DNA of 63,038 nucleotides from Candidatus Buchananbacteria bacterium (GTDB lineage Bacteria; Patescibacteriota; Patescibacteriia; 2-01-FULL-39-33). The DNA is taken from contig JBAYFY010000005.1 of the NCBI GenBank assembly GCA_041666945.1, positions 1 to 63,038 of the forward strand. Direction: 5' to 3'. Positions 11,968 through 45,384 of the stretch are shown one piece after another; position 1 is the first letter of the stretch; each line of letters opens with the position of its first letter. Made by a program: the position numbers and the translations under genes. Below the pieces are notes generated by a model, which saw only the letters and a program-made list of their open reading frames with translations, was not told the origin of the DNA and searched no databases.

Positions 11968-11970
11968 CTA

Positions 11971-12008
11971 AATAAAAATACAGGATTAAACGTCCTGTAT
12001 TTTTATTT
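11971..12008. terminator. bidirectional intrinsic terminator
   Basis: tacagga/tcctgta stem flanked by aaataaaaa and tttttattt. Confidence 0.65.
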
Positions 12009-12010
12009 AC

Positions 12011-12046
12011 TGTTGCGGGGAGTCGAACAGGACAGAAGTGAGATAT
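12011..12046 (+). repeat. truncated third copy of the 5' part of the tRNA-linked structured element
   Basis: gcggggagtcgaacaggacagaagtgag aligns with 44213-44240 and 39345-39372. 12016-12028 is the perfect reverse complement of the tRNA-Glu T-arm at 11947-11959. Confidence 0.6.
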
Positions 12047-12089
12047 GAGCAAAATTGGAAAATTTTTAGAATAATCAAATGCCTTTCCC

Positions 12090-39215: not shown

Positions 39216-39289
39216 GGATCGGTAGCTCAGTTGGTTAGAGCGCTGCCCTGTCACGGCAGAGGTCGCGGGTTCAAATCCCGTCCGATCCG
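39216..39289 (+). tRNA. tRNA-Asp (GUC)
   Basis: Acceptor ggatcgg/ccgatcc, anticodon loop CTGTCAC, T-arm gcggg-ttcaaat-cccgt. Confidence 0.9.
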
Positions 39290-39292
39290 CTT

Positions 39293-39333
39293 AAATAAAA
39301 ATAACCCAGATTTACTCTGGGTTATTTTTATTT
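39293..39333. terminator. bidirectional intrinsic terminator
   Basis: aacccag/ctgggtt stem flanked by aaataaaaat and tatttttattt. Duplicated at 44160-44200. Confidence 0.7.
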
Positions 39334-39344
39334 AAGTAGAATTG

Positions 39345-39512
39345 AAGTCGGGATTTGAACAAGACAGAAACGAGACGAGCTTTGAGCCGGAAGGCGAAAA
39401 GCAAAGTCGAGTGTCGCCGATGTGCCAGTGACACATCGGCGCTGTCTCTGGACGAAACGACGAGTCCGCTTTTGGCGGACGAGGAGTGAGGGATGTTTCT
39501 CGCCCGATCCGC
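39345..39512 (+). ncRNA. candidate structured RNA / small tRNA-linked element, copy A
   Basis: Four-helix arrangement whose differences from copy B (44212-44373) are compensatory. G-U pairs fit the plus strand. A TAGAAT hexamer at 39337-39342 lies upstream and a terminator at 39522-39546 lies downstream. Confidence 0.5.
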
Positions 39513-39521
39513 ATTTTCTAG

Positions 39522-39546
39522 AAATCGCCTTATTGGCGATTTTTTG
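39522..39546 (+). terminator. intrinsic terminator
   Basis: atcgcc/ggcgat stem followed by TTTTT. Confidence 0.6.
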
Positions 39547-39579
39547 GTATAATAAATACATCATACCAATAATAAAATT

Positions 39580-39963
39580 ATGCCTGAGGAAAAATCTGAG
39601 ACAAAAAAAGAAAAAATATCTTATTTTAAGATTTTTCTAATGATTATCGGCATTATTACTATTATTTTTATTTTTTTGGTTATTTTACTATTTATTTATC
39701 TGGTAATTTCCAGACCTCTAGGCATAGACATCAATCCTTTTAATACGACCGGCAGTAGTAACTACGACCATCCGTTATTATCTCCCTCGCAAGAAAAAAT
39801 ATTGCAAACACTAGGCGTGGATTTGGAATCCATACCTACTACTATAACTCCGGTCCAAGAACAGTGCTCGGTGGAAGTATTGGGACAGGATAGAGTAAAC
39901 CAAATCAAATCCGGAGCGGCGCCCTCGCTCAATGATTATTTGAAGGCTAAAAGTTGTTTTTAA
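39580..39963 (+). CDS. small membrane-anchored hypothetical protein
   Basis: 127 aa with one strong TM helix. TATAAT lies 30 nt upstream. Confidence 0.5.
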   Translation: MPEEKSETKKEKISYFKIFLMIIGIITIIFIFLVILLFIYLVISRPLGIDINPFNTTGSSNYDHPLLSPSQEKILQTLGVDLESIPTTITPVQEQCSVEVLGQDRVNQIKSGAAPSLNDYLKAKSCF

Positions 39964-40023
39964 TATATTTAATTAAATTATTTTATTGGCGCCTCATGGC
40001 CCAATAAATCAAAAGGAGAAATT

Positions 40024-40770
40024 ATGAGAAACAAAATTTTGTTAATCGTTATAATAGCGGTCTCTTTCGCTATTGCCGGTGGCGCCTATGCCATCGTCAG
40101 AAGCGGCAGCAACGTAGCTAATAATCAGGTCCAACAGCAGGTCCAGACCGCCAATCAAGCTGAGGGCAGCCAAGTCCAAATCCAGACTCAAACCCAGACT
40201 CAGATTCAAGCTCAGCAACAATTACAGGATGGAAGCGGAACAGAAGCTCAGGTCCCAAACCAGAACCAAATTCAAAATCAGGGTGAGACGGCTCAAGTCC
40301 AGAATAGAGAACAGGAAGGAACTCAGAGCCAAACAGTAACGGCTTCCGCTGCTGTTGAGCAAAGAAAGAGCCAGGTAGCAAACGCTGTGCAGGAAATGTT
40401 ACAGGTAGCCGATAGGAACGGCGACATCGGCCAGCAAGTGCGAGTTATTGCCCAAGCCCAAAATCAAAGCCAGGAAAGATTGGAAGTCAGCCTGCAGAAA
40501 GTCCAGGGCCGGGGTGGGGTCGCCAAATTTTTCATCGGTCCGAATTATGACGAGATAAATAGTGCAAAAAGAATACTACAGCAGAATCGCGAACAGATCA
40601 GCCGATTAAAACAGCTCCAGAACCAGCTGGCCAATCAGGGCGACCAACAGCAATTAACACAGCAGATACAGCTTCTTGAACAAATCCATATGGGAATGGA
40701 GAGTTCCTTGCAGGCGTCCGAGAAAGGTTTCAGTCTGTTGGGTTGGATGTTCAAGTTATTTGCTAAATAA
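40024..40770 (+). CDS. secreted/anchored Gln-rich repeat protein, hypothetical
   Basis: 248 aa with an N-terminal hydrophobic helix, QTQTQTQIQAQQQ repeats and SD GGAG. Confidence 0.5.
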   Translation: MRNKILLIVIIAVSFAIAGGAYAIVRSGSNVANNQVQQQVQTANQAEGSQVQIQTQTQTQIQAQQQLQDGSGTEAQVPNQNQIQNQGETAQVQNREQEGTQSQTVTASAAVEQRKSQVANAVQEMLQVADRNGDIGQQVRVIAQAQNQSQERLEVSLQKVQGRGGVAKFFIGPNYDEINSAKRILQQNREQISRLKQLQNQLANQGDQQQLTQQIQLLEQIHMGMESSLQASEKGFSLLGWMFKLFAK

Positions 40771-40797
40771 TCAAACACTACTGGAAATATAAACAGG

Positions 40798-40829
40798 GCT
40801 GCCGTAACACTGCCAACGGCAGCTTTTTA
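40798..40829 (+). terminator. intrinsic terminator
   Basis: gctgccg/cggcagc stem followed by TTTTT. Confidence 0.65.
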
Positions 40830-40846
40830 TTTAAATATAATATTAC

Positions 40847-40893
40847 TTAATTCTACCCAATCTATTTTTCCAAAATCACCCCGTAAGCCCCGC
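40847..40893 (+). repeat. cassette-boundary repeat R1
   Basis: ttaattctacccaatctatttttccaaaatcaccccgtaagccccgc. Confidence 0.8.
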
Positions 40894-40975
40894 CCACGAA
40901 GAACGCCTCATAACCGGGGTGTTTTTTAATACCGAGAATGGGACGATGGAATCGATTGAAGATTTATGCAAATTG

Positions 40976-41008
40976 AAAACACCGAGAATTTTTTTGTTCT
41001 CGGCGTGT
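40976..41008 (-). terminator. conserved terminator-hairpin module T1
   Basis: aacaccgaga/tctcggcgtgtt, with a T-run on the minus strand. It follows the stop of 41022..41657. Confidence 0.6.
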
Positions 41009-41021
41009 TTGTGTTTATTGA

Positions 41022-41657
41022 TTATCGAACTACTATGCCTAACTCTTTCAATTGTGTCACTACTTCTTGCGTCCTAGAGGTAATGGCGTTAAAGGTTCTT
41101 GTATTTATTCCTATATTAGGAATCACAACTAATGATTGGATCAGCTCTATCTCCGGCCGAGGAATCACACGCATTCGCGGTATTACATCAAGCATCCAGG
41201 GCGTTTTATGAGGTGGGTTACTAAGCGCAACTTCAATAACACCATCATAATCGTGCATTCCACCTTGATAGCCACGGTTCTCCAATAGAGAGCAACACGC
41301 ATCAATGGCTCCGACAAGCATATCTTCATCTGAGGCATCTAACGCCTGCTTGGCTGTATCCTCGGGGTTGGGATCATTCCACTTTCTGTGATGGTATTGT
41401 TTCCTATGTAAATTTAATGCCGGCAAAATATATGTCGTAAAATCGACTTTTGGGTTTCTATATTGCAATGCAAAACATTTGATAATATCCCAGTCAAATT
41501 TATTACCAACGCCGGTCAGATCGTGTGGTCTCTCTGGGTCAAAGTTACCCAGCGTTAGTTTTTCCAGAAAGTATTCTACGTGACACGAGTGCTGAATGGT
41601 TGATAATAGCCATTTGATAATCTCTTCTCTTGTTGGCAACAAATTTTCTGCTGACAT
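41022..41657 (-). CDS. hypothetical protein (possible DUF5662-like His-rich helical protein)
   Basis: ..RPHDLTGVGNKFDWD....LHRKQYHHRKW... The start was set at MSAENL (41657) because the promoter -10 at 41744-41739 leaves the upstream ATG at 41735 essentially leaderless. Confidence 0.45.
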   Translation of the reverse strand: MSAENLLPTREEIIKWLLSTIQHSCHVEYFLEKLTLGNFDPERPHDLTGVGNKFDWDIIKCFALQYRNPKVDFTTYILPALNLHRKQYHHRKWNDPNPEDTAKQALDASDEDMLVGAIDACCSLLENRGYQGGMHDYDGVIEVALSNPPHKTPWMLDVIPRMRVIPRPEIELIQSLVVIPNIGINTRTFNAITSRTQEVVTQLKELGIVVR

Positions 41658-41738
41658 TATTCTTTCCCTTTCGTTGTTTGGGCTTCCACCAAAATTATCC
41701 ACCTTGTTAAAGACCGATTTTGTGATTACTAACATTGC

Positions 41739-41767
41739 AGTTTATCATAATGATTTTATCTTGTCAA
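41739..41767 (-). promoter_or_regulatory. promoter for 41022..41657
   Basis: Minus strand TTGACA (41767-41762), N17, TAAACT (41744-41739). Confidence 0.5.
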
Positions 41768-41856
41768 GGACTGAGTCTATGTTTTCTATAATCTTTATTA
41801 CAATTATCAATTCAAGTTCTAATATCGTCTATTACCCTCCGCAGAATGGAACGATA

Positions 41857-41990
41857 TAAAAAGGCCTATTTTTGTAGGTTTTTTTGGTTGATTTATGGTT
41901 AGGGCGGACCTGCCTGCCGACAGGCAGGCGGGACGGAGAGTATTTTCGAAAAATTAAAACGCCGAGAACTTCCTTGTCCTCGGCGTTGTT
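41857..41990. repeat. ~135-bp intergenic module M1 (contains 20-bp palindrome 41909-41928 and terminator hairpin T2 41958-41987)
   Basis: Aligns over its whole length with 45602-45733. Confidence 0.75.
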
Positions 41991-42009
41991 AAGTACGATT
42001 ATTGATGGT

Positions 42010-42474
42010 TTAAGATGTTGCCAGCTCGCCATCAAAGTGATGGTAATTCAGTTCTATGTAGGGCAGAGTGGCACAGGTTTGGGCGAAACGTTCAAAAGTA
42101 TTTTTGTCCATTAAGAGGACACAGGAAGGCAGTTCCTTGATCAAATCTATCAGGCCTTCTTCTGTTTCTTGCCCAGGTGTCTCATCAATGGAACACGTCA
42201 TTATTTGTCCCCGTCCCGACTCAAAGACAAAAATCTCCCATCTTTTAACGCCGTCATCTCCAATTGCGTTGGGCTCGCCTCGAACTACCTTGAAGGGGTT
42301 GATGTAATTTTTATCTTTAGGTCGCAAATGCAAACAGCCAAATCGACTGGAAATTCCACTCAGCTTAGAGCGGGGAGCTTGACTATCTATCATAAATTTG
42401 AAACTGTAAACGCCAGTTTCTTTAATACTGGTTCCAGTAATCACAAACAATTTGGTGCGCGCTTCATCAGTCAT
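42010..42474 (-). CDS. hypothetical protein
   Basis: The start at MTDEAR overlaps the upstream stop (aATGACTGA), indicating translational coupling with 42467..43084. Confidence 0.5.
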   Translation of the reverse strand: MTDEARTKLFVITGTSIKETGVYSFKFMIDSQAPRSKLSGISSRFGCLHLRPKDKNYINPFKVVRGEPNAIGDDGVKRWEIFVFESGRGQIMTCSIDETPGQETEEGLIDLIKELPSCVLLMDKNTFERFAQTCATLPYIELNYHHFDGELATS

Positions 42475-43084
42475 TAGTCCCCTCACTTTCCTTTGTGTTG
42501 GTGGTTTTAATTTGATAATACGACATAACCAAAAGCATAATAGACACTAATGTAATTGTTCGGATAGAATATACTGCCGCCAGTATGTTGCCGCCCACAA
42601 TTGATGGGTAGAGTGCCAGCATACCAGTAAGAAGCCCACCAGTCCAGGTGACAAATGATTCAGTATTCCGCTTCTCCTTAATTAGGTTGTGCACCGTCGG
42701 AATGTAGCCGATGCTTATGAGTACTTGGGTGAAGATGTTTGAACTCCAGGCATCTCCGGTCAATACACCATAAACAATCACCAAGCCGATTCCCACCAAG
42801 TACCATTTCTCAAATGGTTTGAACTTCAGTCCTCGTTCGCCTCCGATCACAAGAGTGAGTAAAATAATGATGCACACGCCCGTGTCCATGGTGTTGAGAA
42901 CTCCGGATTGAAAATCGTGATGTTCAGCAATAGCATAAGTGGCCAAACTTAGACCTGTTCCCAGAACGAAAATAATCCAGGTAGATAGCGCCGGGCTAAT
43001 CTTCCGCCTGTGGATTTGGACTATATACCAAGTTGAATCGAATAGCATCACGGCTATCACTAGAAGAACAAAAAATTCTTTCAT
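42467..43084 (-). CDS. six-TM membrane protein with two internal repeats (PQ-loop/SWEET-like?)
   Basis: 205 aa. Two similar segments: YIVQIHRRKISPALSTWIIF..G..L..Y and YIPTVHNLIKEKRNTESFVTWTG..L..Y. Confidence 0.55.
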   Translation of the reverse strand: MKEFFVLLVIAVMLFDSTWYIVQIHRRKISPALSTWIIFVLGTGLSLATYAIAEHHDFQSGVLNTMDTGVCIIILLTLVIGGERGLKFKPFEKWYLVGIGLVIVYGVLTGDAWSSNIFTQVLISIGYIPTVHNLIKEKRNTESFVTWTGGLLTGMLALYPSIVGGNILAAVYSIRTITLVSIMLLVMSYYQIKTTNTKESEGTND

Positions 43085-43145
43085 CTACCAGACCCCCCAT
43101 TGTTGATATATTTTTTGATTGGAAAGTGCAAATCCTTAATATGAC

Positions 43146-43174
43146 ATTATAGCATATCAAATTATTTTTGTCAA
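43146..43174 (-). promoter_or_regulatory. promoter for the 43084-42010 two-gene unit
   Basis: Minus strand TTGACA (43174-43169), N17, TATAAT (43151-43146). Confidence 0.6.
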
Positions 43175-43185
43175 ATAGTGAGAAT

Positions 43186-43222
43186 TTAATTCTAATTCCA
43201 CCCAATCAATTTTTCCAAAATC
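43186..43222 (+). repeat. cassette-boundary repeat R2 (3' part missing)
   Basis: ttaattctaattccacccaatcaatttttccaaaatc. Confidence 0.75.
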
Positions 43223-43267
43223 TCTACTTTAGTAATTTTTTTTATAAAAATGAGACACATCATGACT

Positions 43268-43960
43268 TTAATCATATATGCCATCAAAATAGTATATAAT
43301 TTTTCCCGTCATTGCATCAACTATTGTCTCATCAAGTGATCCACCCAATTTTAAAAAAGGGCTATCAGCAGAATCTTCACCACCATTGTTTTTGTTATTC
43401 CTAGTAATCATCCAAACCAATTGGTATTCTTGTATATCCTTACCTTGGGATAAATATTTATCTCTAAAGCCTAGTTCAGCGCTGAAGTCGTTTAATTCTA
43501 ATTTATATTTACGTTTAATCTTAATGACAGCTTCTTCCGGTGAAATTTTAGGCTCAAGAGAGTCTATGTCAACATGAGCCACATCACCGACTAAGTAACG
43601 AATGAGCCCATCTTTTCTAAAATGATAATATAGGTCACTATAAAAAATAGTCAAACCATTATATAATTGTAGGGCTTTAATTACATGTCCGTCATTGTCG
43701 TTTCCTTTTAAATCATAAATCCATAAATCTTTATTAAAGTCTTCACTAATATTGTTTTTGTCAAAAAGTTCTTTTGCCTTAATTAGTTCTGCAGTTGATA
43801 AATTATGGTTAGTGTGGGGCTGAATTACTTCAACAGTTATATTATCTAATTGTAGATCTGGCTTAAATAATTTATTCCTGATATTACCTTGAAAAATAAT
43901 AAATAATGCAACAAAAATAACAATAAAAATGATGGCAGTTACTATTATTTTTTTGTTCAT
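43268..43960 (-). CDS. membrane-anchored protein with PepSY-like C-terminal region, hypothetical
   Basis: 230 aa with an N-terminal TM helix, ..ISPEEAVIKIKRKY.. and ..VDAMTGKIIYY... Visibly more AT-rich than its neighbours. Confidence 0.5.
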   Translation of the reverse strand: MNKKIIVTAIIFIVIFVALFIIFQGNIRNKLFKPDLQLDNITVEVIQPHTNHNLSTAELIKAKELFDKNNISEDFNKDLWIYDLKGNDNDGHVIKALQLYNGLTIFYSDLYYHFRKDGLIRYLVGDVAHVDIDSLEPKISPEEAVIKIKRKYKLELNDFSAELGFRDKYLSQGKDIQEYQLVWMITRNNKNNGGEDSADSPFLKLGGSLDETIVDAMTGKIIYYFDGIYD

Positions 43961-44110
43961 AATTTTATCTCAATAAGTAATAAATTAATTTCATTATGTC
44001 ATATTAATAAAAAGAAGTAAATAATTTGTTAATTTTTCAATTAAATTCTTCGACTGGCCGTAATTCTGAATCAAATCCATTTCCCATGTTTTTTATAATG
44101 GGACACTTGT

Positions 44111-44157
44111 TTAATTTTTCCCAATCAATTTTTCCAAAATCGCCCCGTAAGCCCCGC
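44111..44157 (+). repeat. cassette-boundary repeat R3
   Basis: ttaatttttcccaatcaatttttccaaaatcgccccgtaagccccgc. It abuts the duplicated tRNA-Asp terminator. Confidence 0.8.
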
Positions 44158-44159
44158 TT

Positions 44160-44200
44160 AAATAAAAATAACCCAGAATAAATCTGGGTTATTTTTATTT
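44160..44200. terminator. duplicate of the tRNA-Asp bidirectional terminator
   Basis: 44158-44220 equals 39291-39353 except for 3 loop positions. Confidence 0.65.
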
Positions 44201-44211
44201 AAGTAGAATTG

Positions 44212-44373
44212 AAGTCGGGACTCGAACAGGACAGGAGTGAAATAAGATTTTTGGCGGAAGACAAAAATCGCAGTTGAGTGTCGCCAATCATTGATAATGA
44301 TTGGTGCTGTCCCAGGACAAGAGAGGTCGTTGCGTTTTGGTGACGACTGAACGCGGAAGTCCCGCCTGTCCGC
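44212..44373 (+). ncRNA. candidate structured RNA / small tRNA-linked element, copy B
   Basis: Same helix order as copy A with compensatory substitutions. TAGAAT lies at 44204-44209. Confidence 0.5.
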
Positions 44374-44401: not shown

Positions 44402-44429
44402 AACGCCGAGAGTATTTCATCTCGGCGTT
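44402..44429 (-). terminator. conserved terminator-hairpin module T3
   Basis: aacgccgaga/tctcggcgtt, with a T-run on the minus strand after the stop of 44440..45384. Confidence 0.65.
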
Positions 44430-44439
44430 GAATGAATGA

Positions 44440-45384
44440 TCAACCATTAACAAAACATTGTCGCGCTACGATCCCAAGTAAGCGCATCAGTTGCTCTTTA
44501 TTCCAGGCGTGGACTTCAAGCTCAAAGGATATTTCAGCATTTCCATGCCAGTTGCTGCCATCCCAGTAGGTATTGTTGTATTCATCGACTGTGACCGCTC
44601 GGAGTTGTTTTGTTTCAAATCCATTCGGGGCTTGAATCTTGATTGAATAAACGCGCTTGCGAGGCCCGAGCTTAATTGTGTTGTTGCCAAGTTTGAAACA
44701 GTACCATGGCTCATTTGCCGCGCCGCAGTATTCATTCGGGACTTCCTCGCGGGCGATGCTTTCGACGCCAAGGTTGTTGGCCAATTCCGTGAAGACATGG
44801 TTGAAAAAGTCGTCATGCCGGACGCGAATCGGGTCGGACGGTTGAGTCAGTACAAGTGTTTCTTCCCGCGGTACCCACCGCCAAATACCAGCAGATGTCT
44901 GTACATAGCAAGTGATTCCTTCTGGCATTTGCGCCGGAATGGGTGGGCATTCAAATCCCACTGGAATACGATAGCTATGTTGAGTGTAGAGTTCATCAAA
45001 AATCTTTCTCCATTCCTCGTGTTTGTCTTCTGGAACATCCTCACCTTTTGTGCCAATCGGCAGATCTAACTTCTGACAGGCACTCTGCCAGCAAGCTTCT
45101 TCGAGCGGTTTTCGCGCTTGTTTGATTTTTTCCCAACGCGCTCGCCACGTCGGCAAGACCGTTTTGTTTACCCAATCAATCGCTGATTGCGGTATGTGGT
45201 CGCTTTTCTCATTCGGAATAATGAAGATGTTTCCGCCGCCGGCCGATATGAATGTCGATATGCCGCCACAGGCGAGGCAACGCATTCCACGCTGTTGAAG
45301 TTCTGATCCAAAGTATCCGCCGTGATCTTGCCAATCGTTTTTGCCGCACACGCAATTCGGCGTGCTTTCCATTCCTGTTGCCAT
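44440..45384 (-). CDS. hypothetical protein with N-terminal Cys-x-Cys...Cys-x2-Cys ribbon
   Basis: 314-aa ORF with CVCGKNDW...CLACGG. Confidence 0.5.
   Translation of the reverse strand: MATGMESTPNCVCGKNDWQDHGGYFGSELQQRGMRCLACGGISTFISAGGGNIFIIPNEKSDHIPQSAIDWVNKTVLPTWRARWEKIKQARKPLEEACWQSACQKLDLPIGTKGEDVPEDKHEEWRKIFDELYTQHSYRIPVGFECPPIPAQMPEGITCYVQTSAGIWRWVPREETLVLTQPSDPIRVRHDDFFNHVFTELANNLGVESIAREEVPNEYCGAANEPWYCFKLGNNTIKLGPRKRVYSIKIQAPNGFETKQLRAVTVDEYNNTYWDGSNWHGNAEISFELEVHAWNKEQLMRLLGIVARQCFVNG

Follow-up and report, generated by a model that had tools for sequence, protein, structure and literature searches.

Copies A and B, a pair of repeats in the window (the whole stretch of DNA analyzed, 63,038 nt), may well be members of a large uncatalogued family of tRNA-gene inserts, gene-less units of about 250 nt which would be moved by a host-supplied activity and which have a structured core read from the plus strand; we give this reading an even chance. 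An earlier, sequence-only reading had placed copy A at 39345-39512 and copy B at 44212-44373, and both were confirmed there; they align end to end and their differences are concentrated in the helices. The proposal of a two-copy element did not survive: the Patescibacteria genome studied (1.08 Mb) yielded 12 copies with a covariance model, which detected more than 235 across 29 of the 34 genomes of the same family, with a maximum of 19 per genome, the other five carrying none. With regard to the candidate structured RNA proposed in that reading, the conserved multi-helix fold of the plus strand was retained, but not a discrete sRNA gene present in two copies with its own conserved promoter. 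From comparative evidence only, we infer that the element is or recently was mobile, without an enzyme gene and relying on host-supplied activity. A full-text literature search found no description of the element, and the family is apparently undescribed.

Anatomy of the unit and fold of its core

Homologues were gathered by BLAST in 100 relatives, in which they were found behind tRNA genes, and a 15-sequence alignment of them gave the covariance model. The complete unit consists, in this order, of a palindromic hairpin (H), an antisense arm, a ~135-nt core and, last, a sense copy of the tRNA end (Table 1). The core is organized as a three-way junction in which one hairpin has a GNRA cap; it also features tandem G-A pairs, and its GGAC junction is invariant. 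In copy A its parts are the enclosing helix P2, hairpin 1 (GGAA cap, tandem G-A pairs), hairpin 2, the GGAC junction, hairpin 3 and a GAGUGAG tail. Single-sequence folding (z-scores of -4.2 for copy A and -2.6 for copy B) recovered every helix described previously, in an order common to both copies; the enclosing helix and hairpins 1, 2 and 3 were reproduced in these folds as well as in the consensus fold of 15 homologues, and the tandem U-G/G-U of hairpin 3 in copy B also reappeared. The closing helix was present in the folds too, but it is made of an antisense and a sense copy of a tRNA 3' end.

Table 1. Coordinates of the element copies and of the neighboring features in the window
Feature	Position	Strand	Evidence and remarks
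Third, truncated family member behind tRNA-Glu(TTC)	11969..12050	+	covariance model 17 bits, E 0.008 (weak)
tRNA-Asp(GTC), host gene of copy A	39216..39290	+	ARAGORN; Rfam tRNA 74.5 bits
Hairpin H of copy A	39290..39336	.	sequence; 20-bp stem, A/T tracts around a CCCAG/CTGGG center, 7-nt loop
Spacer holding the TAGAAT hexamer	39337..39346	+	part of the nearly identical duplicated stretch
Antisense arm of copy A, GTCGGGATTTGAAC, 5' strand of closing helix P1	39347..39360	+	complementary to tRNA-Asp nt 53-66
Structured core of copy A	39361..39498	+	fold, consensus fold, covariation; covariance model 134.8 bits
Sense arm of copy A, CCGATCCGC, 3' strand of P1	39499..39512	+	direct repeat of the tRNA-Asp 3' end with slight decay; 9 nt exact
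Hairpin and T-run after copy A, likely terminator	39522..39547	+	read by eye; uncalled by a simple scan
Six accessory-gene ORFs located between the copies (127-248 aa)	39580..44110	.	ORF list, Pfam search
45-nt cassette-boundary repeat	44111..44157	+	last 16 nt resemble a decayed tRNA-Asp 3' end, 11/16
Hairpin H of copy B	44157..44203	.	sequence, alignment with copy A
Antisense arm of copy B, GTCGGGACTCGAAC	44214..44227	+	T-loop match to the genus-typical tRNA-Asp (TTCGAGT) and not to the genome's own (TTCAAAT)
Structured core of copy B	44228..44357	+	fold; 143.1 bits; 77% core identity to copy E3 of G003
Sense arm of copy B, AGTCCCGCCTGTCCGC	44358..44373	+	decayed copy of the genus-type tRNA-Asp 3' end (compared with G001, G002, G003)
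Terminator-like hairpin after copy B	44402..44429	-	terminator scan; just past the stop of minus-strand ORF 44440-45384

The compensatory changes first noticed between two copies were borne out at the level of the family, as they affect 29 of the 34 pairs in the consensus fold of 15 homologues, and double changes occur at all 34 pairs among 94 distinct copies. In the latter set, 91.9% of the cells pair, compared with 64.2% after shuffling and 28-42% when the partners were slid, and the covariation score (0.624 vs 0.204) was reached by none of 500 shuffles; covariation was also computed on a 46-sequence version. The predicted preference for the plus strand held as well: G-U and U-G combinations exceed A-C and C-A ones by 75 to 33, meaning that it is the plus strand that folds. 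Conservation is higher in unpaired core columns (0.72) than in paired ones (0.65), the GGAC junction is invariant, G-A and A-G juxtapositions are frequent at fixed places, and hairpin 1 is capped by GGAA in 26 and by GAGA in 4 of 49 copies. Such features characterize a folded single strand in plus orientation, and the conserved junctions and the GNRA loop suggest RNA. The folded core would serve as a recognition module, most likely as RNA.

A tRNA-like gene on the minus strand was considered and rejected, since ARAGORN finds none and both the G-U excess and the GNRA loop favor the plus strand. A coding region was ruled out by indels of 2, 4 and 5 nt between the copies, in agreement with the lack of a conserved reading frame reported before.

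The core does not match any RNA in Rfam, as anticipated in the sequence-only reading, which could not relate it to SRP, 6S, tmRNA, RNase P or a riboswitch. The whole window compared with Rfam 15 at gathering thresholds gave no match on the core, and at E<=10 either copy produced only weak matches to the hairpin and the flanks; RtT (RF00391), group I and II introns, riboswitches and HEARO gave no match to the core at this threshold. A tmRNA or RNase P RNA was discarded as both are located elsewhere in the genome. SRP RNA and 6S RNA had no match anywhere in the genome, and a divergent form of either was rejected on the basis of copy number, truncation and differences in presence or absence.

The absence of SRP and 6S RNA matches implies that a vacant role exists, which could be filled if A and B were two paralogs of a structured sRNA gene that stands alone, is driven by a promoter and serves a housekeeping-type function. 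The fold and its covariation are real, and each copy is followed by a terminator-like hairpin. The one behind copy A had been reported as an intrinsic terminator, and its hairpin and T-run are indeed visible by eye, although a simple scan leaves it uncalled; the one behind copy B, called on the minus strand, could stop plus-strand transcripts as well. Against this possibility, the genome contains 12 copies, some of them truncated, presence varies between sister species and the ends are tRNA-derived. The TAGAAT hexamer reported before both copies does exist, but it lies with no matching -35 box inside one nearly identical stretch and thus represents a single duplicated piece and not the independent conservation of a promoter; no sigma-70-like promoter was called by a promoter scan before copy A or B. 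The sRNA-gene explanation is largely refuted by copy number and insertion polymorphism, and we regard it as extremely unlikely. With respect to expression of the core as RNA, it was also observed that a strong terminator-like hairpin stands between tRNA and core and that no promoter was called, which weakens the case for it.

Matching arms and insertion at tRNA genes

Among 96 copies examined with their genomic context, 59 lie 9-57 nt behind a tRNA gene of the same strand, 7 follow another copy in tandem, 11 are immediately in front of a tRNA, 4 are at the edge of a locus and 15 are orphans; none of the 96 was found beside a tRNA of the opposite strand. The adjacent tRNAs span 17 amino-acid specificities, and the arms follow them. 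In most of the 59 tRNA-trailing copies the sense arm repeats exactly the last 16-17 nt of the tRNA, from T-loop nt 58 to the last base, and over this set its mean exact match is 13.2 nt to the cognate tRNA vs 5.2 nt to non-cognate ones. The antisense arm covers nt 53-65 (T-loop and T-stem), sometimes extending to nt 70-73, with a mean exact match of 10.6 nt to cognate and 6.2 nt to non-cognate tRNAs; that of copy A has a 12-nt exact antisense match to its own tRNA. A single imperfect palindrome with H at the tip is formed by tRNA nt 53-73 together with H and the arm, in which on average 16 of the 21 tRNA nucleotides are paired and, in several copies, 20 of 21 pair with spacer and arm; at the locus of copy A, nt 53-73 of tRNA-Asp form the left half of such a palindrome, the rest of which is provided by the hairpin and the antisense arm. 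Upstream of the copies the tRNA genes are intact, their 3' end being full and H following as a new terminator. Hairpin H of copy A resembles a bidirectional terminator.

The unit is positioned as if it had been inserted at T-loop position 57/58. At tRNA-Asp, the gene is joined directly to a terminator module in the sister genome G002 (empty site), and in G003 the same tRNA end and module enclose H, spacer, antisense arm, core and a 17-nt duplicate. H is absent from the empty and present in the filled site and is therefore part of the inserted unit, the old tRNA terminator being located behind the element. The right flank in this comparison is itself a repeated module, so that the two flanks are only putatively orthologous in the strict sense. 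Of seven sister genomes with an identifiable tRNA-Asp, five (G001, G002, G005, G006 and G008) have the site without the element.

Copies seem to have spread among different tRNA genes. The cores behind tRNA-Asp and tRNA-Gln(TTG) of G003 are 94% identical and their arms differ, each matching its own tRNA (with one mismatch in the 16-nt arm of the Gln copy). Similarly, two cores behind tRNA-Ser genes of G033 are 99% identical and have each their own sense arm, the antisense arms of this pair fitting their tRNAs poorly. Between genera, copies located at one and the same tRNA share about 75-80% identity. The near-identical cores and the truncated copies fit recent spread followed by decay and not a vertically kept gene; gene conversion could be an alternative source of near-identical cores within one genome.

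In the genome studied here, 13 of the 48 tRNA genes carry an insert or are linked to one by matching arms when truncated copies are counted. A listing of the regions downstream of the 48 genes showed full copies behind tRNA-Tyr and tRNA-Trp and truncated ones behind tRNA-Glu(TTC) and tRNA-Cys; the Glu copy in the window retains a hairpin, a matching antisense arm (GCGGGGAGTCGAAC) and only the first ~20 nt of the core. Three strong model matches are not beside a tRNA, yet their sense arms match one: two correspond to tRNA-Ser(GGA) and tRNA-Pro(CGG), each across a contig break, and the third to tRNA-Gln(CTG), from which it is separated by a 5-kb stretch with a gene for a large serine recombinase. 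Three copies of the genome are located at contig ends. Outside the family, among 150 further genomes taken from across the phylum, only 3 gave the element in a search with model R1 under stricter filters. Viral carriers were sought with a 17-nt core probe, which retrieved 97 stretches in IMG/VR, and no real model match was found among the 80 loci listed (758 kb). A single 22.8-bit model match was seen among these listed loci, away from the probe site.

These observations bear on the possibility that the element is a host-kept tRNA-trailer RNA like RtT of Escherichia coli tyrT, that is, a processed by-product or partner of tRNA transcripts spread by duplication and gene conversion, whose arms only close the fold or enable the refolding of a read-through transcript around the tRNA. 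In its favor, the element always has the orientation of the tRNA and is placed between this gene and its original terminator, tandem units end each in a copy of the tRNA 3' end as in tyrT, the core structure is under strong selection and, as read from its sequence, the sense arm of copy A retains T-stem pairing by means of two GC/GU swaps. On the other hand, presence at the same tRNA varies between sister species, copies at some tRNAs are truncated, five of the 34 family genomes have none, cores 94% identical occur at unrelated tRNAs with re-matched arms, a terminator-like hairpin precedes the core and RtT (RF00391) gives no match at E<=10. We hold this explanation to be quite improbable.

In the mobile insert preferred here, the antisense arm is complementary to the uninterrupted tRNA across 57/58 and thus spans 5 nt beyond its pairing with the sense arm; by covering the insertion point it may address an intact target. 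The 3'-end duplicate behind the core pairs with the antisense arm and closes the fold. A variant found at the D-loop has tRNA nt 1-19 and the region upstream of them duplicated in front of the core, a local GTCG..CGAC hairpin in place of the long-range helix, and a remnant of nt 21-30 after the enclosing helix, with the complete tRNA downstream.

The extension of the antisense arm 5 nt past the sense-arm pairing, over 57/58 of the uninterrupted target, also speaks for an intron-like, self-inserting RNA, in which this arm would act as an internal guide (its 5' part pairing with nt 58-65 and its 3' GAAC with nt 53-56) and the core would be a small ribozyme or would assist a host enzyme as its cofactor in inserting the element into tRNA sequence. 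The two guide parts are arranged as in the internal guide of group I introns, the D-loop variant has tRNA nt 1-19 upstream and nt 21-30 downstream of the core, and the core contains a GNRA loop and conserved junctions. Nevertheless, no intron or ribozyme model of Rfam matches the element and its junctions have neither a U-G wobble nor a terminal G. Reverse transcriptase is absent in G003 and G033 despite recent spread, leaving an RNA-to-DNA route without an enzyme, and splicing would be unneeded since the upstream tRNA is already complete. An intron-like origin is rated as very unlikely.

Units and cargo at tRNA-Asp and candidate enzymes

Alignment of copies A and B indicated that the repeat begins further upstream than described, at 39287 and 44154, respectively, with the last bases of tRNA-Asp, and that the nearly identical stretch includes both the TAGAAT box and a palindromic hairpin of 47 nt. 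Hairpin H is inverted between the two copies, its sequence in B being 98% identical to the reverse complement of its sequence in A. The arms of the two copies match different genes, those of B the genus-typical tRNA-Asp and that of A the tRNA-Asp of this genome. The only positions that distinguish the latter from its counterparts in G001 and G002 are nt 57, 59 and 69, which all belong to the 3' part.

Copy B begins directly after the 44111 copy of a 45-nt boundary repeat, which is found at 40847, 43186, 44111, 46711 and 48068; at 40892 this repeat abuts the terminator module that trails tRNA-Asp in G002. The six ORFs after copy A belong to no Pfam family above the cut-off and include no recombinase, and the cargo between A and B has no homology to that of the same locus in G001, G002 or G003. 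The region downstream of tRNA-Asp is hypervariable in the four genomes compared, and a search for right-hand synteny found only short repeated modules in common with G001, G002 and G003. Three copies alternate at tRNA-Asp of G003 with unrelated cargo (a radical-SAM-like protein, a nitroreductase and others), and the same pattern of copies and cargo occurs at tRNA-Trp of G001, with a decayed tRNA end before the distal copy. The cargo ORFs of these two genomes and those described here contain no recombinase domain.

A scheme can be proposed in which successive units landed at tRNA-Asp and each pushed the older ones downstream, so that A and B would each lead one block of accessory genes; copy B, with arms of the genus-typical tRNA-Asp, would be a displaced unit. 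The nearly identical segment from hairpin to arm may be the place where units recombined or were copied.

The unit itself contains no ORF, and none of the enzyme families tested as tracking the element does so (reverse transcriptase, IS110, TnpB, Y1, Cas1 and serine recombinase). RVT_1 is absent in G003, G007 and G033, which have 11-18 copies and recent spread, and present in the element-free G011, G025 and G026; large serine recombinases (Resolvase) are uncorrelated with the element; IS110, TnpB-type proteins and Cas1 are absent in five high-copy genomes and the Y1 transposase in three of these five. Phage_integrase was detected in 32 of 34 genomes, as a single copy in G000 and G003, and the source genome has one such gene, on another contig (C2). 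Being near-universal, this family is uninformative for correlation. A host Xer-type recombinase is a possible mover of the element.

The latter would be the enzyme acting in trans if the element were a recombination site made of folded single-stranded DNA, as in integron attC sites or the CTX phage. In this case the plus strand would fold as DNA, the pair of arms would mimic the tRNA duplex from nt 58, the tyrosine recombinase would exchange strands between the mimic and the tRNA gene, and cargo cassettes would ride along. The arms do make a duplex copy of the target, the fold is strand-specific, copies alternate with cargo blocks at tRNA-Asp both here and in G003, H of copy B is a flipped version of that of copy A and Phage_integrase is the sole tested enzyme present in nearly all genomes (32/34). 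Weighing against it, the arm duplex usually has just 8-13 bp, which is little for a recombinase core site, the sites used are other than dif, the near-ubiquitous recombinase yields no correlation signal, and the highest conservation resides in internal junction purines and the GNRA loop and not at the ends, as is typical of RNA tertiary folds. This alternative is considered quite unlikely.

A more specific version of the mobile insert was also contemplated: a unit without protein genes addressed by pairing of its antisense arm with the intact T-loop and T-stem over the insertion point, whose core either is a ribozyme or assists a housekeeping enzyme as its cofactor, with the tRNA being rebuilt, cargo blocks riding behind and tRNA genes of these ultra-small bacteria acting as integron-like capture platforms. 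In this complete form the proposal is tentative and rather unlikely.

Comparison with known mobile elements and structured RNAs

Patescibacteria have tiny genomes and few recognizable mobile elements. If the element is mobile without a gene of its own, it points to a novel host-driven insertion of DNA at a programmable address, which is relevant to the biology of mobile DNA and to genome engineering. It would also account for the stacks of accessory genes behind tRNA genes in these bacteria and, as a common unannotated repeat, it breaks assemblies and can mislead the annotation of sRNAs and tRNAs.

Islands and prophages with tyrosine integrases cross over in the T-loop of tRNA genes, and CIMEs are their non-autonomous derivatives flanked only by att sites. 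Like these, the element is inserted at the 3' part of a tRNA gene, which is rebuilt, leaves a partial copy at the far end (direct repeats of 16-17 nt), stacks at one tRNA and carries cargo. Direct repeats and an intact tRNA are thus found as in integrative elements that target tRNAs; an integrase within the element is not. In contrast to them, it comprises only ~250 nt with no integrase, has a conserved covarying core where they have arm sites bound by proteins, contains an additional antisense copy of the target, occurs at 17 specificities with matching arms and includes a 5'-side variant at the D-loop. In casposon-type integration, a Cas1-family integrase produces a 14-16-bp duplication at the 3' end of a tRNA. 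The size of the duplication and the site are similar in the element, although the five high-copy genomes have no Cas1.

A structured, strand-specific site of variable sequence that is recognized by its shape and served by a trans-acting enzyme is a feature shared with the attC sites of integron cassettes, as is its alternation with promoter-less or orphan cargo beside a fixed landing site. However, there is no IntI-type integrase beside the array, the landing site is a tRNA gene, and the element is a multi-helix junction with conserved loops instead of a single imperfect hairpin, with no R''/R' core sites evident. The ORFs flanking the array gave no Pfam match and the core-site consensus was not seen by eye, so that the array does not qualify as an integron. 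IMEX of the CTX-phage type, which use the host XerC/D, also have inverted target copies that fold into a duplex mimic and lack their own recombinase, and for both an integrated double-stranded form would be stable. The element differs in that its sites are tRNA genes and not dif, there is no phage genome and the core is far more elaborate than a forked hairpin.

The ends of MITEs and non-autonomous IS are fixed inverted repeats and those of the unit are target-derived, with IS110, TnpB-type proteins and Cas1 absent in five high-copy genomes. A retroelement (group II intron, retron or SINE-like) is at odds with the absence of RVT_1 in G003, G007 and G033, and a bacterial SRP RNA with the lack of an SRP model match and with a multi-copy, sometimes truncated and polymorphic element.

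Among RNAs, RtT (Rfam RF00391) is encoded in 178-bp repeats directly behind tyrT, each of which ends in a copy of the tRNA 3' end. The element resembles it in having repeat units behind a tRNA gene, with this same type of ending. The tyrT/rtT locus of E. coli is the background to this comparison (10.1101/2024.07.17.603846). The element differs in occurring at many tRNAs with an antisense arm and a polymorphic presence, and the two show no match in sequence or structure. The bridge RNA of IS110 and the guides of group I and II introns are set apart by the lack of an IS110 recombinase, of a correlation with reverse transcriptase and of an intron model match; the likeness is a functional analogy only, which consists in a structured RNA with a stretch complementary to its target across the point of insertion.

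tRNA-Asp as a probable landing site

The tRNA-Asp of the genome under study (G000) differs from that of the related genomes G001 and G002 at exactly three nucleotides (57, 59, and 69), all of them in the 3' part of the gene, as expected if an insertion had replaced that part. In three sister genomes, frames of 446-536 aa with a Resolvase domain (serine recombinases) were detected about 1 kb downstream of tRNA-Asp, the one in G005 being apparently split into two pieces; on this evidence, insertions in the genus apparently use tRNA-Asp as a general landing site.

Further downstream in the window, a 45-nt repeat ends in 16 nt that resemble a decayed tRNA-Asp 3' end and is adjoined, at position 40892, by a module composed of a terminator and GGGACGATGG. 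The same module lies directly 3' of tRNA-Asp in G002 and of tRNA-Ser(CGA) on contig C3 of G000. The entire repeat region has the appearance of stacked cassettes that landed at tRNA-Asp.

Features discussed in this part and their locations
Feature	Location	Remark
tRNA-Asp	window 39216-39290	compared with G001 and G002
Hairpin H, copy A	window 39290-39336	palindromic
Hairpin H, copy B	window 44157-44203	palindromic
45-nt repeat	window 40847-40891, 43186, 44111-44157, 46711, 48068	borders of orphan-gene blocks
Resolvase-domain frames	G005:C11; G006:C18; G008:C24	loci L078; L081; L082
Orphan copy and tRNA-Gln(CTG)	G000 C2:183359-188779	other contig than the window
Serine recombinase frame	G000 C2:185955-186389	459 aa
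Weaker member	G000 C2:159623-159755(-)	before tRNA-Gln(TTG)
Weaker member	G000 C11:7510-7643(-)	before tRNA-Pro(GGG)
Weaker member	G000 C6:58271-58387(+)	before tRNA-Gly(GCC)
Weaker member	G000 C10:18731-18881(-)	before tRNA-Lys(TTT)
Hairpin 2 motif	L040:204-370; L037:7664-7851	example copies
Viral-contig match	L167:8296-8431	22.8 bits
tmRNA	G000 C1:38960-39345	
RNase P RNA	G000 C2:188875-189275	

Copies at other tRNA genes

An orphan copy of the element carries a sense arm (the direct copy of a host tRNA's 3' end) that corresponds to tRNA-Gln(CTG), located 5.2 kb away, and the intervening DNA contains a serine recombinase frame, an arrangement that looks like the separation of the tRNA and its element by the arrival of an island. 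Four weaker members of the family are situated in front of tRNA genes, and in 4/4 a duplicated tRNA 5' part was found upstream of the element.

Hairpins of the element

The hairpins H of copies A and B differ only in the loop, and either loop, when reverse-complemented, matches the other apart from a single mismatch, which points to flipping, or to copying across the hairpin. Within the core, hairpin 2 of many copies bears a recurrent apical motif, UGCGACC-loop-GGGAGCA, with a tandem G-A flanked by C-G pairs; this motif also forms the leading hairpin in some of the copies that sit in tRNA D-loops.

Viral contigs and housekeeping RNAs

Among 80 viral-contig loci from IMG/VR, the covariance model matched only one, at a site distant from that of the 17-nt core probe; the contig concerned measures 416 kb and may be a mis-binned cellular fragment. 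Regarding known structured RNAs, neither SRP RNA (small or large bacterial) nor 6S RNA was detected at E<=1 in the whole G000 genome (96.6% complete), and tmRNA and RNase P RNA were both found in it.
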